Below, piece after piece: positions 32,063-41,533 of a stretch of 64,000 bases of DNA; within the stretch, counting starts at the first letter, position 1; every line of letters begins with the position of its first letter. The stretch spans positions 3,808,001-3,872,000 of the forward strand of contig CM000152.2 of NCBI GenBank assembly GCA_000004695.1. Reading direction: 5' to 3'. Under the pieces are notes generated by a model. That model saw only the letters and a list, made by a program, of their open reading frames with translations, was not told the DNA's origin and did not search any database. The position numbers and the translations under genes are program-made. The stretch is from Dictyostelium discoideum (taxonomy: Eukaryota).

Positions 32063-33393
<1,331 letters not shown>

Positions 33394-33506: not shown

Positions 33507-35922
33507 TTAAAGATTAAATTTCCATAAATTTGAACTACCATGAGAAAATAAAGCACCAACATTAAATTGAGAAAGTTGAATTTTTGTAATTTCAGAATTT
33601 GGACGACCATATAGTTCACCAATGGATTGAGTTAAATTACGTGGATCCCAATAAGAAATTCTTGAACCACCTCCACATAGGATTTTCTTTGGTTCAACAT
33701 CAAAAGATTTAACATGAATTGTATCGACTATTCTTTTAATATAGAATGGACCAGTTCTTTCATCAAAGAATCTGAGTGTACCATCTTTACTTGAAGCAAC
33801 AACGATATCTTCTTTTGGTAATACTTTACAAGAATAGATTTCATCAGTATGACCAAGGAAAGAGATAACTTTTTTACCAGTATTTAAATCCCATAAATTG
33901 ATTGGACCTCTTGAACAACCAACGGCAACCCTATTGGTATGAGTATTGATGGCGGTGATTCTATCGTCTTGTTGAATTGAGGTTAACAATTCACCAGTGC
34001 TAGCATTGAAAACATCAACTATTGTATCGTAGTCATCGAATTCGGAAGAATCTTCATTACCTTCATAATGGAGAACCACATTGCTACCAGTGAAATTGGA
34101 AGATATTGAGGAGACATCCCAAAGTTGAGGGGTAGTAATTTTCGGATTGATTAATTTAATTTCTCTGGTATTTGAAATATTATCTGGATGGAATTCAATG
34201 AGTGTTTTATTCTTTAAACCTGAATAAACCAAAGAATCACTTGTCCACATATGAACTGAGCAAGATGGTTCCTTTGGGATGTAATCGAATCTTTGTGGAT
34301 TAAAACGACTTGAATCTGCGAAATCTATTACATACGCCTCACCAGTGCTGAAACCTGAATAACTTTTCTCACCATCCAAATGAATTGAGGTGATTGTACC
34401 CTCGCCATTATTGGGTATCATTGCGAATTGTGATGGTGAGATACGATAGGACGCAATTGACATCAACGAAATTCTAACACTAGTTGGCACACTTGGTGTT
34501 AGACCATTGATGGAGGGACCTGTATTCTTTGGTTGACCATATAGTTTACTAATTTGCCACAGTACCTCCATTCTAATCTTTAAGAAAAAGTTCTTCTTCC
34601 ATTGTTGATCTATTGTTTCATAATTTGTCTCTCTACTTAGAAAGAATGTCAATGAGGGATTATCGAAATTTAAATCGGTTGAAGAGAATTGAAATTGAGT
34701 TTTAACAAAACTATCCCAAAGATGTCTTAATTGGTCATTGTTTTTACCATTATTATAATGACTATCCAATTTAGATTCACCAAAGATATTAAAATATAAA
34801 CGGTACCATAGGATATCAGATTCTGACATTTGTTTCATATATTTACAAGTTCTTGATACTTTACATAATGCTCTATGATCAAGATAGGATAATATCGTCA
34901 TAATGATTTCATGTGGTAAATAGAATAAATTAACCAAACCATCCAATATATCATCACGTTCAGTTTGTTTTTCATAATTATTTGAAAAGAATTGAACTCT
35001 TTCACTAATTATTGATGGTATAAATGGTGGTAATAAAAGTTGATTACTTGATGCTCTATTCTTTAATATTTTAATATTTTTAGGTGGTGATCCTGAAAGT
35101 GAACCAACTGGTGATTCATTAGGTGATTCATTTGATGATTCTGTAAATGATTCTGTTGATAATTTAATATTTCTTGGTAATGGTAATATTGATGATGATG
35201 GTGATGATGTTGTTGTAGTTGTTGTAGTCGTAGTTGTTGTAGTTGTTGTAGTGGTGGTTATTGGAAATTGAATTTTTAATTTATTCAATGATTCTAAATT
35301 TTTCTGTTGTTTTTTTAAATTAATTATTTCGGTTTTATTATTATCTATTATTTTATCATTTTTATTTATATATTCACTAATATTAATATCTCTATTTACA
35401 ATGTTATTATTATTATTATTACTATTATTACTATTATTACTATTATTACTATTATTACTATTATTATTAGTGGTATTATTTATAAAATTGATATTTGGTT
35501 CGCCTGTACAATTTCTAGTTTTTTTAGATTTTTTATATTGTTCTTCAAGTTCATCATTGTTGATATCATTTTCAACATTGAATGAATTTTTCGGTATTTC
35601 AATTGAAGAAGTTATTGATGAATTGGTTATTGTTGATGTAGTGATTATTGTTTTATTTACATTATTATTATTATTACTATTACTATTACTATTACTATTA
35701 TTAATATTATTATTAATACTATTATTATCTTTATTGTCTTGCAAAAATGAATTTGAAGAAATAGTTGATGATGTTGTTATTGTTTGTGAAAGATTTGTAA
35801 TTGAAGAATTAATTTTATTAAGTGGTTGCGTAGAAGAAGAATTTAAAGATTGTAATGATGTAGATGGTAATATATTTGTACTACTACTTCTAGAAACAAA
35901 AGAAGAGGAATTATTATTGTTA

Positions 35923-35993
<71 letters not shown>

Positions 35994-35997
35994 TTTA

Positions 35998-36035
<38 letters not shown>

Positions 36036-38104
36036 TAAATTTGAAATTAATGAAGATCTTAAATTTTTTTTAGAATTAATTGGTTTAAAATAATAACTTG
36101 ATTGATCATTTGATTTATGATGATTATTAATTGATGGAATGATATTATTTGATTGTGATTGTTCAATTGAATCTGAAACTGATAAAAGTTTAATTGAATC
36201 AAGTATTTGAGATTCTTTTGAAACTTTTGAATAAATAAAATCAATAATATCAGAGAATAAATAAATAACTTTAATTAAAACTGGATCATCAAATCTATCT
36301 TTATGATTATTTGAAGAATTACTTGAAGTTGATGAAGAGAATGAAGATTTAATTAACATTAAAATATCTAAAGAACGTTCACTTCCAGGTATATTAGAGT
36401 AGGAGGATAATGAGGACGATGATGAAGAAGAGGATGAAGATGAAGATGATGAAGTATTATTAGTTGATTTTGATAATTCAATTGGATTAATTTTATCTCT
36501 CCAATTATCAGGATTAATTAAAAAGTAAGTTGTAAATTGACATTCATCACTTTTAAATTTTAAATTATCAAATGAAAAAAAAAAGATATCACCATTTTCA
36601 CGTTGCTCTAATAAGAAATAACCACTTGTGTTTGCACCATTTTGTAATGTACTTCTAATATTGAAAAAGGGTATATTAAATTTAAATTTACTTGAGATGA
36701 TTGGACCACCACCTTTTAATATTGTAATTTTATCTTCCAATACCATATGATAAATGAATGGATCCCATTGAAAATCTTCTTCAAACATAAAACAACCAAT
36801 TAAAATTGGGTCGAATGAAACTTGATATTTTGTTTTAATTAGTAATGGACTGGTGGAGGTGTGACGGTCGTAGAATACACAAATGTTGTTATGTTTACTT
36901 GGTAGACTATTCCATTGAGATTTCTCATCGAGATCTTTAAAGAAATGAATCCATTCTTCACGTGATTTCTCTTGAAATTTAATTCCATGCTTACCTGTAC
37001 CCTGTTCAACATTTATACCATTTGGTATATAAGTCAATGAATTACTCTTATAATTCTCTATGGTTTTTTGATGTTGACATTTATTTCTAATGAATTTAAT
37101 CTTGTAAACTAAATTCATCAATGATATTTTCGGTACAACTGGCATTAATAAATAATCAGAGAATGATCTGCCTTCATTTCCAAAATCATATGAACAAATA
37201 TGTGTTGAAAAACTACCATTACTCTTTACTCCATCTAAATCATATGATACAATTGGTTCAAAAATATATCCAAATATTGGTAATCCACCTCTAATATATT
37301 CCTTTGATTTAACACATCCTTTAAATTCATTATAATCTCTTGAAACTGTAAAATATGATCCTTTTCTACTTGGGTGTGGTCCTGTAATTCTTTTTTTTTT
37401 TAAAAAAATAAAAAAATAATAAATTAATAAAATGGGGGGAGGGGGAGTGTGGTAATATATTTTTAATAATAATAAGCATACTGTAAAATAACACAATCTC
37501 TAGATTTAATAAATAATGACATATTTGTATACATGTGAAGTAATAGAATATCATATTTTGAATAAGGTATATTTAATTTTTGAGCTTTTTGTTTATCATT
37601 GGTTGTAAAGTAATAAACTATTTCGAAACGATCTAAATAACGATCCCAACTAAATCTAGCTAACCAATCTGATACATAGGTTACTGCAACCTCTGGATCA
37701 CAATCTATAATTTGGTTTCTTGATAATAATGAACTACCAACTACACTATCATATCTTGGATTTTGAAATGGTTTTGACCAAACACTAATATCAGATTCTT
37801 CTTTACTTATAAATTTCCATTCCGTATCAATTAATTCATTTTCAAAGATTTCCAATAATCCTAAACTCTCTAAATAAATCGATTTTAATTCTAACAATTC
37901 TTCATCTTGAAAATTGTTACCAATAAAACTATTATTTTCTAATTTTTCAACTTGCTCCAAATCATTTGGTAATATTAATTCATTATTTTTATTACTACAA
38001 TACCCTATTGAATTCATTTTAAATGGTGGTGTTGTTATATTATTATTATTATATATATTATTATATTTATTATTATTATTATTATCTTTATTAATTGGTT
38101 CCAT
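33507..38104 (-). CDS. START domain + F-box + WD40-repeat protein, ~1484 aa: join(33507..37389,37533..38104)
   Basis: ATG at 38104. START/Bet-v1-like region WKFISKEESDISVWSKPFQNPRYDSVVGSSLLSRNQIIDCDPEVAVTYVSDWLARFSWDRYLDRFEIVYYFTTND, continuing after a ~143-bp intron (GTATAC donor, A-run then AG acceptor; junction uncertain) with ...YFTVSRDYNEFKGCVKS.... F-box LFYLPHEIIMTILSYLDHRALCKVSRTCKYMKQMSESDILWYRLYF. C-terminal WD40 repeats (...GHTDEIYSCKV..., ...ASSKDGTLRFFD...). Long poly-N/S/T tracts. Confidence 0.6.
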
Positions 38105-38234
38105 TTTTTTTACTATGTGTTTTTTTTTTTTTTTTTTTTTTTTATTTTTATTTTTGTTTTGGAAATAAAAATAAAAAAAAAATTTACAAAAAATTTAATA
38201 TTTGAAAATACCAAAGTTATGAAAATTATCTCTA

Positions 38235-38265
<31 letters not shown>

Positions 38266-38315
38266 ATTATTTTGTTATTATTTTTATTATTATTATTATA
38301 ATTATTATTAGTATT

Positions 38316-38358
<43 letters not shown>

Positions 38359-39721
38359 AAAGAAAAAACTATTTATAAAAAAAAAAAAAAGTTTTTTTTT
38401 GTTGTTTTTTGATTTAGATTTGTTGGGGTGGAAAAAAAATTTTTTTTTTTTTTATTTTTCAATTTTTTATTTTTCAATTTTTTTTTTTTTTATTTTTCAC
38501 CTCTTTATATTTTTAACGAACCTTTGAATTGCGGACGAGAAAAAAATCTTTTTTTTTTTGTGTATGGTTGGACAAAACAGAGATTATTTTTTTTTTTTTT
38601 TTATGTATTTATTTTTTTTTTTTTTTTTTTTTATTATTTATTTTTTATATTTTTTTTTTTTTTTTTTACCAAATTATTTATTTATTTAATTATTTATAAA
38701 TAATTATGAAATTATGTAAAATGTTTATTTTTATCCTTTAGGGAGGATAATAAAAATAATTAAAAAAAACATAAATTTTAAAAATAAATTTCAGAGACCA
38801 GGGATATAAAATAAAAAAAAAATTAAAAAAAAAATTAAAAAAATTAAAAATTATAATAATAATTAATTTTTTATTTTTTTATTTTTTTATTTTCGTGAAA
38901 GTGCCTCCCCAATAAGCAAATTTTGAATTTCCATTATTTTCAATAAACAACTAGGGTACACCCACCCTCCACCCTCCAATTTAGCAAATATTCAAAATTC
39001 TCAATTTTTGAAGTCCTTGCTAGATTATTAGACAAAATTAATAAATGTGGGATTTTTTAATATTTATCTTTTTTTTAATTATTTAAATTTATAATAACAA
39101 AATAATTTCTATAAATGTGTTTTTTTTAAAAAAAAAAAAAGAGATTAATTACTTTTTTTTTTTTTTTTCAATATAATTAATTTAATCATTCAGATTTTAA
39201 AAATTTCTTTTTTTATAATTTCTTTTAATTTTTCTTTTTCTTTTTCAATGATTATTTTTTTTTTTCCAATTTCAATTAATCATTTAAAAATTCAAAAATC
39301 ACTTTTTTTTTTTTTTTATTTTTTTTTTTTCTTTAATAATTAAGTTAGGATTTTAAATAAAGTTTTGTTCAATTAAAAATCAAAAGATATATTTATTCAT
39401 TCCTTATTTTAACCTAGAAATTCATTTTAGAATATGTAATTATTGACTAAATTAAAAAAAAAAATAATAAAAATAAAAATGAAAACATTCCATTGGTTTT
39501 TTTCATTGAAATTCCCAATAATGGATTTTATTTTTTTTGAAATTTAATTTTTTTTTTTTTTATTAATTTAATTTAATTTTTTTTTGATTTTTTTTTTTTG
39601 ATTTTTTTTCAATTGCATTTTTTTTTTTTTAATTTTTTATTTTTTAATTTTTTTTTTTTTTTTTTTTAAATCAACTACAAATTTTTTATATATATTTATT
39701 ATTATTTTTAAAAAAAAAAAA

Positions 39722-41533
39722 ATGACAGATAAAATTAATAATTTAATTAATCAATGGTTAAAATGGGATAAAAATGAAATTACAAGAAAGGAAATTGAAC
39801 AATTAAAAGAGAATAACAATGAAAAAGAGTTATTAGTTAGATTAGAAGAAAGAATTCAATTTGGTACAGCAGGTTTAAGAGGAGCTATGAGAGCAGGTTT
39901 CTCATGTATGAATGATTTAACAGTTACACAAGCAAGTCAAGGATTATGCGAATATGTCATTGAAACAATTGAACAATCAAAGAGTAAAGGTATAGTAATT
40001 GGATATGATGGTCGTCACAATTCGTACATTTTCGCTAAAATCACTGCAGCAACATTCAAATCAAAGGGATTCAAAGTTTATTTATTCTCTCATATTGTAC
40101 CAACACCATACGTTTCATTCGCAGTACCAAATTTGAAGGCGGCAATTGGTGTAATGATTACAGCATCACATAATCCAAAGAACGATAATGGATATAAAGT
40201 GTATTGGGAGACTGGTTGCCAAATTAATACACCACATGATAAAGGAATTTCAAAGAAGATTGACGAAAATTTAGAGCCATGGTCAAATGTAGACGCAACA
40301 TCTGATATTAAATATGGTAATGGTGATGATGGTGAGTCAATGATTGACCCATTGTCAGTGATTACTGAATTGTATAATAAGAATATTAAAGAGTATTCAG
40401 TTGGTTCCAAAATCGAATTGGCAAACGAGCCAATAGTGTATACTGCAATGCATGGTGTTGGTGGTGTTTATGCAAAGAAGGCATTTGAGACATTCCAATT
40501 GAAACCATTCATACCGGTGGCACAACAAATCGAACCAGATGCTGAATTTCCAACTGTCACATACCCAAATCCAGAGGAGGGTAAAGGCGCATTGAAGTTA
40601 TCAATTGAGACAGCAGAGGCAAATAATAGTCGTTTAATTTTAGCAAATGATCCAGATGCCGATCGTTTAGCTGTCGCAGAGAAACTTGCTGATGGTAGTT
40701 GGAAAGTTTTCAATGGTAATGAGATTGGTGTGCTTTTAGCTGACTGGGCTTGGACTAACAGATCTACGTTGACTAAAGGTGGTAGCACATTGGAGAATAA
40801 TAAATACTTTATGATCAATACAGCTGTGTCATCAGCTATGTTAAAGACAATGTCAGAGAAGGAAGGTTTCATTCATCAAGAATGCTTAACTGGTTTTAAA
40901 TGGATTGGTAATGCCGCATACAATGCAATCAATAATAACGACGGTACCACCTTTTTATTTGGATATGAAGAGGCAATTGGTTTTCAATATGGTGATGTCT
41001 CATTCGACAAAGATGGTGTTAGAGCTGCTGCAATCTTTGCTGAATTCGCCCTATCACTCTATAAAAAAGGTAGTTCAGTTCAAGATCATTTAGAATCAAT
41101 GTATAAACGTTATGGTTATCATATTAGTAAGAATCGTTATTTCTTTTGTTATGAACCATCAAAAATGGTTTCAATTTTCAATAAAATTAGAAATGATGGT
41201 AAATATTTAACAAAGTTAGGTGATGATGATGATGAACAATTTACAATCACTCGTATTCGTGATCTTACTACAGGTTATGATAATGGTTATCCAGATTGTA
41301 AGGCAAGATTACCAGTAAGTTCATCAACTCAAATGATTACATTTTATTTTAAGAATGGTGGTATCGCTACATTAAGAGGTAGTGGTACTGAACCAAAATT
41401 AAAATATTATGTTGAAATGATTGGAGAAGTTAAATCTAATGTTGAATCAACACTCACCAAAGCTGTTGAACTTGTTATTAATCAATTATTAAAACCAATT
41501 GAAAATCAATTAGAACCACCAAAAGATGATTAA
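39722..41533 (+). CDS. Phosphoglucomutase-2-like / phosphopentomutase (alpha-D-phosphohexomutase superfamily), 603 aa, single exon
   Basis: Active-site loop [15 protein letters not shown] and metal-binding [15 protein letters not shown] near the N-terminus. Uninterrupted ORF from a true ATG. Possibly the organism's pgmB, but the symbol is not asserted. Confidence 0.85.

Follow-up and report, generated by a model that had tools for sequence, protein, structure and literature searches.

Whether a START-type lipid-binding domain, an F-box and a WD40 beta-propeller are joined in a single protein is the question raised by a locus of Dictyostelium discoideum, located in a 64-kb stretch of contig CM000152.2 (positions 3,808,001 to 3,872,000; referred to here as the window, within which all gene coordinates are given). 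Two open reading frames (ORFs) are found on the minus strand: one of 213 codons (37463..38104), which begins with an ATG at 38104 in an A-rich context, is preceded by an in-frame stop and carries a START-like string (...VWSKP...SVVGSS...IIDCDPEVAVTYVSDWLARFSWDRYLDRFEIVYY...), and one of 1329 codons (33507..37496), which carries an F-box string and C-terminal WD40 repeats. Both sets of strings had been noted in a preliminary description of this DNA, which joined the ORFs through an intron with a GTATAC donor at 37532 and an acceptor at 37390, predicted a product of 1484 amino acids (aa), and proposed a Pfam scan and a comparison with other dictyostelids as checks. In this study, we report the gene structure, domain order and conservation of this gene across all four groups of Dictyostelia. 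Our results suggest that one two-exon minus-strand gene, DDB_G0280895, probably encodes a START-type/F-box/WD40 protein of 1501 aa, in which the START-type domain and a second conserved domain (domain 2) would serve as a regulatory or targeting module.

The gene was identified as DDB_G0280895 because its F-box string matches, except for one residue absent from the extracted text, the entry of that name in Figure S3 of Boland et al. (2022; PMC9485057). In that figure the gene carries the flags a, b and t (UniProt-annotated, BLAST-predicted and training set, respectively), its substrate-receptor column reads 'WD40', and START goes unmentioned. Its place in the 17-member F-box training set of that study, whose members were counted as confident F-box proteins, supports our interpretation. 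Full-text literature searches for DDB_G0280895, and for START together with F-box in Dictyostelium, returned nothing relevant, and the gene was not named in the main text of any paper in the library searched. DDB_G0280895 is already catalogued as an F-box/WD40 protein; its START domain and its function are not described in the accessible literature.

A profile of the N-terminal 480 residues, searched against 1.84 billion representative proteins, returned six proteins, all of which were dictyostelid, and no relative outside Dictyostelia was detected at E <= 0.001; a homologous-protein search seeded with the family alignment gave no matches. Five of the six were full-length orthologs from four other species, namely D. 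purpureum (DICPUDRAFT_160380, 1310 aa), Cavenderia fasciculata (1348 aa), Tieghemostelium lacteum (1296 aa) and Acytostelium subglobosum (two paralogs, 1385 and 1211 aa); the sixth, PPL_04501 of Heterostelium album, was a 322-aa fragment covering the START-like region only. The order of parts was the same in all five full-length orthologs, and all six full-length proteins (D. discoideum included) matched F-box-like, F-box and WD40 families. Therefore, the family and its architecture span all four major groups of Dictyostelia, and the fusion, judged by these alignments, is real and conserved in social amoebae. The proposed comparison with other dictyostelids has thus borne out the joining of the three parts through an intron, which moreover lies within the START-like domain itself.

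Two species differed from the others. A. subglobosum possesses two full-length paralogs, compared with one gene in the other species, and both contain the START-like domain, domain 2, F-box and WD40 repeats. In H. album, just the first ~150 residues of PPL_04501 align with the family and the remainder is unrelated; the model of this gene has probably been cut short or wrongly spliced, and its F-box/WD40 part may have been called as a separate gene.

To define the splice junction, every in-frame GT...AG pair that leaves the frame open was enumerated. The acceptor proposed previously was correct (its AG ends at 37390 and exon 2 begins at 37389), and two donors qualified with it: GTATAC at 37532, which gives a 143-nucleotide intron and 1484 aa, and GTATGC at 37481, which gives a 92-nucleotide intron and 1501 aa. 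Homology decides between these in-frame donors and favors the one at 37481. With this donor, the junction (...VILQ/ITGPHP..., the slash marking the splice) aligns without gaps with all orthologs, and the G-x-H-P motif right after it is invariant in 7/7 sequences. Although the donor at 37532 is also in frame and open, it would remove MYTNMSLFIKSRDCVILQ, a stretch of 17 residues shared unchanged with D. purpureum, whose ortholog reads ...DILLLHMYTNMSLFIKSRDCVILQ before the junction and ISGQHPIRKGSYF... after it, and conserved in every other ortholog. These residues include the START 'K-x-R-D/E' strand, and a Pfam scan of the protein spliced in this way gave no START match whatever. In addition, alignment of the D. 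purpureum protein with the genomic sequence of that species revealed one intron (243 nucleotides, GTAATT...TTTTAG) at the same codon and phase as the D. discoideum intron that starts at 37481, and the C. fasciculata gene also has an intron at this codon and phase (79 nucleotides, GTATGT...TTTTAG). Use of the donor at 37532, whether as the normal splice or in an alternative isoform, is therefore very improbable, and the product proposed previously has to be lengthened by the 17 residues. The same evidence bears on the idea that the locus holds two genes, a short one coding for START alone (38104..~37463) and a second one, further downstream, that would code for the F-box and WD40 parts on its own. 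Such an arrangement could draw on the fact that exon 1, read through the intron, is a self-contained 213-aa ORF with a stop after 6 more codons, and that the one-gene splice is assigned by sequence comparison. However, the START-like domain runs ~110 residues into exon 2, the G-x-H-P motif that follows the junction is invariant in 7/7 sequences, the whole architecture is kept in the five full-length orthologs, and T. lacteum codes through the junction without an intron, its single intron lying 70 codons further on. Exon 2 is part of one stop-free 1293-codon ORF (the C-terminal part of START, F-box and WD40) whose first Met comes 82 codons in, inside the START-like domain, and hence exon 2 probably does not form a gene by itself. 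Two separate genes are thus extremely unlikely. Since the exon 1 read-through stops after 6 codons and the first 82 codons of exon 2 lack a Met, both ORFs are assigned to one gene, with the donor placed by homology at 37481.

Some additional features of the introns were observed. The D. discoideum intron, 79% A+T as a whole, contains a C-rich run (CCACACTCCCCCTCCCCCC; 37434-37452, minus strand) that is unusual for this genome; the corresponding intron of D. purpureum carries an (AAT)n run instead. Intron content differed widely among the orthologs (at least five introns in C. fasciculata; one in D. discoideum and D. purpureum, common to C. fasciculata; one at another site in T. lacteum), which points to intron loss in several lineages.

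The START pattern had been described as convincing, but its signal proved weaker than that. Our analysis suggested that the N-terminal domain (aa 58-322) is in all likelihood a divergent START-type domain, for which the profile evidence was rated better, the single-sequence evidence marginal and the structural evidence weak. In Pfam, the gathering score of START (PF01852) is 22 bits, an operational cut-off and not a biological feature. Exon 1 alone scored 12.9 bits, the correctly spliced 520-aa N-terminus 19.7 bits (E 6e-4) with a match crossing the exon junction, and the isolated domain 21.6 bits (E 1.5e-4), which is 0.4 bits short of the gathering score. START was matched at E<1 by 5/7 family members and no other family recurred; an NCBIfam scan gave no matches. 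When a family profile built from the seven sequences of the domain was searched against all PDB chain sequences, the six best matches were all START proteins: mouse and human STARD4 (1.1e-4 and 4e-4, respectively), STARD6 (7e-3), two more STARD4 entries and PCTP. No other family ranked above START proteins and the alignment was collinear, running from the N-terminal helix into the sheet, which represents a specific and significant similarity to proven START proteins. The strongest PDB match, to STARD4, aligns with the N-terminal half of the domain and the Pfam match falls in its center (START profile positions 49-157), and therefore the resemblance is not limited to one motif. A model of the domain predicted by AlphaFold2 (AF2) from the seven sequences was of low confidence (predicted local distance difference test score, pLDDT, 48; predicted TM-score, pTM, 0.47), and showed a long helix, three strands, a helix, several strands and C-terminal helices, as in START domains. 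A Foldseek search of PDB with this low-confidence model placed START proteins at all of the top 33 positions, with a best E of 4e-4 and TM-scores of just 0.2-0.3; these matches included StAR, StarD13, ACOT11, CERT, STARD3/4/5, PCTP, a silkworm carotenoid-binding protein and a bacterial START protein.

It is quite unlikely that this resemblance arose by chance and that the domain belongs to an unrelated family restricted to Dictyostelia, as Pfam, the family profile against PDB and Foldseek, which are three partly independent searches, all put START alone on top, and the source annotation of the Heterostelium ortholog (UniRef name 'START domain-containing protein') agrees with them. A possibility of more substance, though still less likely than not, is that the gene model is right but that the helix-grip module at the N-terminus has degenerated and lost lipid binding, and would act in protein interaction or scaffolding, or in substrate recognition together with domain 2. 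The START score below the Pfam cut-off, a family-specific insertion (TTNDKQKAQKLNIPYSKYD) within the START-like fold and the low confidence of the AF2 model would all be compatible with this. On the other hand, the domain is the best-conserved N-terminal part over about all Dictyostelia, and its resemblance to START spans both the N-terminal half and the center, though without showing a cavity. Returning to the START-type/F-box/WD40 protein as a whole, several points weigh against it: its splice assignment depends on homology; START lies just below the Pfam gathering score at best, and was not listed at E<=0.01 in full-length Pfam scans of any of the six orthologs; and DDB_G0280895 carries none of the Skp1 co-immunoprecipitation flags (v, s, u, m; vegetative or slug) in Figure S3 of PMC9485057, which may reflect low abundance. 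The absence of START from the full-length scans also accounts for the public names 'F-box domain-containing' or 'WD40 repeat-containing' protein.

The remaining parts of the protein were more readily assigned by the proposed Pfam scan, in which the F-box exceeded its cut-offs and WD40 propeller families were matched, whereas START stayed below its own. The F-box-like family PF12937 scored ~51.4-51.5 bits (E 8e-14; cut-off 24.3 bits), and PF00646 scored ~29.8-30 bits (cut-off 20.5 bits); the F-box exceeded the Pfam cut-off in 6/6 orthologs. The motif is also visible directly (LPHEII...LWYRLY): it opens with L-P-x-E and shows the conserved pattern of hydrophobic residues. C-terminal to the F-box lies the WD40 propeller, for which about ten propeller families were matched in 6/6 orthologs; the WD40 family PF00400 itself scored 25.8 bits, below its cut-off of 27 bits. 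Searched against PDB sequences, the C-terminal 482 aa matched many WD40 propellers, among them designed WD40 proteins (2e-29), FBXW7 (1e-19) and WDR5 (1e-12), and the last 150 residues of the propeller region showed 51-60% identity across species. The N-terminal domains were conserved (33-76% identity across species), whereas the low-complexity linker (~420 aa) was nearly unconserved (3-16% identity to orthologs per 50-aa block), which argues for selection on the START region. Domain 2 was conserved in all six full-length orthologs, was seen only in this dictyostelid family and had no match in Pfam or PDB. A second START copy at this place was considered and found unsupported (profile-profile E 0.097 versus the first domain). 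The AF2 model obtained from a two-sequence alignment of the whole N-terminus was very poor and unusable (pLDDT 28.9); at most, its secondary structure gives a hint of an alpha+beta fold for domain 2. The coordinates of all parts are listed in Table 1.

Table 1. Exons, intron, domains and linkers of DDB_G0280895 (positions within the window)
Feature	Position	Strand	Residues	Description
Coding exon 1	37482..38104	-	aa 1-207 and two bases of codon 208	Asn-rich N-terminus and N-terminal two thirds of START-like domain
Sole intron	37390..37481	-		92 nucleotides, GTATGC...AAAAAG, phase 2
Coding exon 2	33507..37389	-	last base of aa 208 to aa 1501	Stop TAA at 33507-33509
START-type domain (predicted, divergent)	37047..37933	-	aa 58-322	Intron-interrupted
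Second conserved domain	36483..36980	-	aa 345-510	Invariant W, WD, GG and ExRxxGD positions
Short conserved block within linker	36195..36290	-	aa 575-606	DPVLIKVIYLFSDIIDFIYSKVSKE; from conservation scan of six-species alignment
Low-complexity linker	34932..36194	-	aa 607-1027	Poly-Asn, poly-Thr and Ser-rich tracts
F-box	34791..34922	-	aa 1031-1074	LPHEIIMTILSYLDHRALCKVSRTCKYMKQMSESDILWYRLY; PF12937 and PF00646
Conserved F-box-to-propeller linker	34518..34715	-	aa 1100-1165	42-50% identity over six species
WD40 beta-propeller region	33510..34475	-	aa 1180-1501	Two or three repeats canonical, others degenerate

The window is A+T-rich (~75-90%) and contains long Asn-coding triplet arrays, which is typical of Dictyostelium; within the gene, trinucleotide arrays at 35209-36035 fall in the region of the low-complexity linker. 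Plus-strand ORFs inside the interval (such as 35401..36093) were rejected as genes because they are antisense images of poly-Asn tracts, and a scan of the window detected no tRNA genes. The gene is flanked by a PfkB/ribokinase-like gene (32063..33393, plus strand) and a phosphoglucomutase-family gene (39722..41533, plus strand). The T. lacteum gene also adjoins a phosphoglucomutase gene in divergent orientation, and this synteny supports our interpretation of the locus. The spacer between the F-box gene and the phosphoglucomutase-family gene (38105-39721) is 1.6 kb in length, 85-93% A+T and rich in long T runs. The PfkB gene comprises three or more exons. Between the first two of them, at 32387-32537, lie 50 AAT units that share the reading frame of the exon-2 ORF (32339..32869); this run could be either a poly-Asn insert of ~50 residues or part of an intron.

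F-box/WD40 proteins select the targets of SCF (Skp1/cullin/F-box) ubiquitin ligases; START domains have lipids, sterols and similar compounds as ligands. By analogy with known F-box/WD40 proteins, the default reading of DDB_G0280895 is that of an SCF substrate receptor, in which the F-box would dock on Skp1 within the ligase and the WD40 propeller would select the substrate. With less assurance, the START domain and domain 2 may be viewed as a regulatory or targeting module, and binding of a hydrophobic ligand or a membrane by the START module could determine the place or time of ligase action. The preliminary description envisaged a sensor for lipids or sterols attached to an SCF adaptor; both this arrangement and the ligand binding that it implies are predictions. 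It is conceivable, but unlikely, that START genuinely senses a hydrophobic signal specific to social amoebae, be it a membrane lipid, a sterol or a polyketide (for instance, a DIF-type morphogen), and that ligand occupancy switches the substrate choice, localization or stability of the adaptor. In that case, DDB_G0280895 would be a ubiquitin ligase receptor gated by a small molecule, with an origin independent of plant TIR1/COI1 and PYR/PYL. In social amoebae, lipophilic signals and the F-box protein FbxA already decide cell fate, and a fusion kept throughout these organisms might suggest direct control of protein degradation by a hydrophobic ligand or membrane. The gene is uncharacterized and belongs to a tractable model organism, and its START domain escapes routine domain scans; with the gene model corrected and the domains mapped, a knockout and a test of ligand binding are straightforward.

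Comparison with known systems places these features in context. Human FBXW7 and yeast Cdc4, both SCF receptors, resemble DDB_G0280895 in that a WD40 propeller lies C-terminal to the F-box. However, FBXW7 has no START domain, and DDB_G0280895 has ~1000 extra N-terminal residues, including two conserved domains, and only two or three canonical WD repeats. In D. discoideum itself, FbxA/ChtA (FbxwA) is an F-box/WD40 protein that controls RegA degradation and 'cheater' behavior, and it belongs to the same class of long F-box/WD40 proteins with low-complexity linkers. Unlike DDB_G0280895, FbxA was detected in Skp1 pull-downs, and the N-terminal profile of DDB_G0280895 returned no FbxA-like relatives. 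A START domain is said to have been described in FbxA/ChtA by Schrick and colleagues in 2004, which we treat as an unconfirmed lead only; if so, the START/F-box/WD40 architecture would have a precedent in a paralogous gene. The possibility that the gene studied here is fbxA/chtA was rejected, as the tagging primers FbxA5'-S and FbxA5'-AS (PMC10539598) had no match in the window at <=3 mismatches, and the two genes occupy separate rows with different F-box sequences in Figure S3 of PMC9485057. A protein search with the FbxA F-box string gave no matches.

With regard to the START module, among proteins of solved structure, the family profile best matched the sterol carriers STARD4/5/6 and PCTP (E 1e-4 to 0.17), with collinear alignment. 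They are stand-alone proteins of ~210 aa, whereas the domain of DDB_G0280895 has an internal insertion, falls below the Pfam cut-off and is fused to a predicted ubiquitin-ligase adaptor. Plant HD-ZIP III/IV proteins also combine START with an output module in one chain, and their START domain is thought to make the output ligand-dependent; however, this output is DNA binding, not ubiquitin ligation, and the fusions have no common ancestry. As analogies only, plant TIR1/COI1 are SCF adaptors that need a small ligand to choose their substrate, and the plant PYR/PYL abscisic acid receptors use the helix-grip START fold as a hormone receptor, but the ligand of TIR1/COI1 sits in a leucine-rich repeat domain and PYR/PYL are not F-box proteins. 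Among these systems, DDB_G0280895 is, by its predicted domains, an FBXW-type adaptor with a START module.

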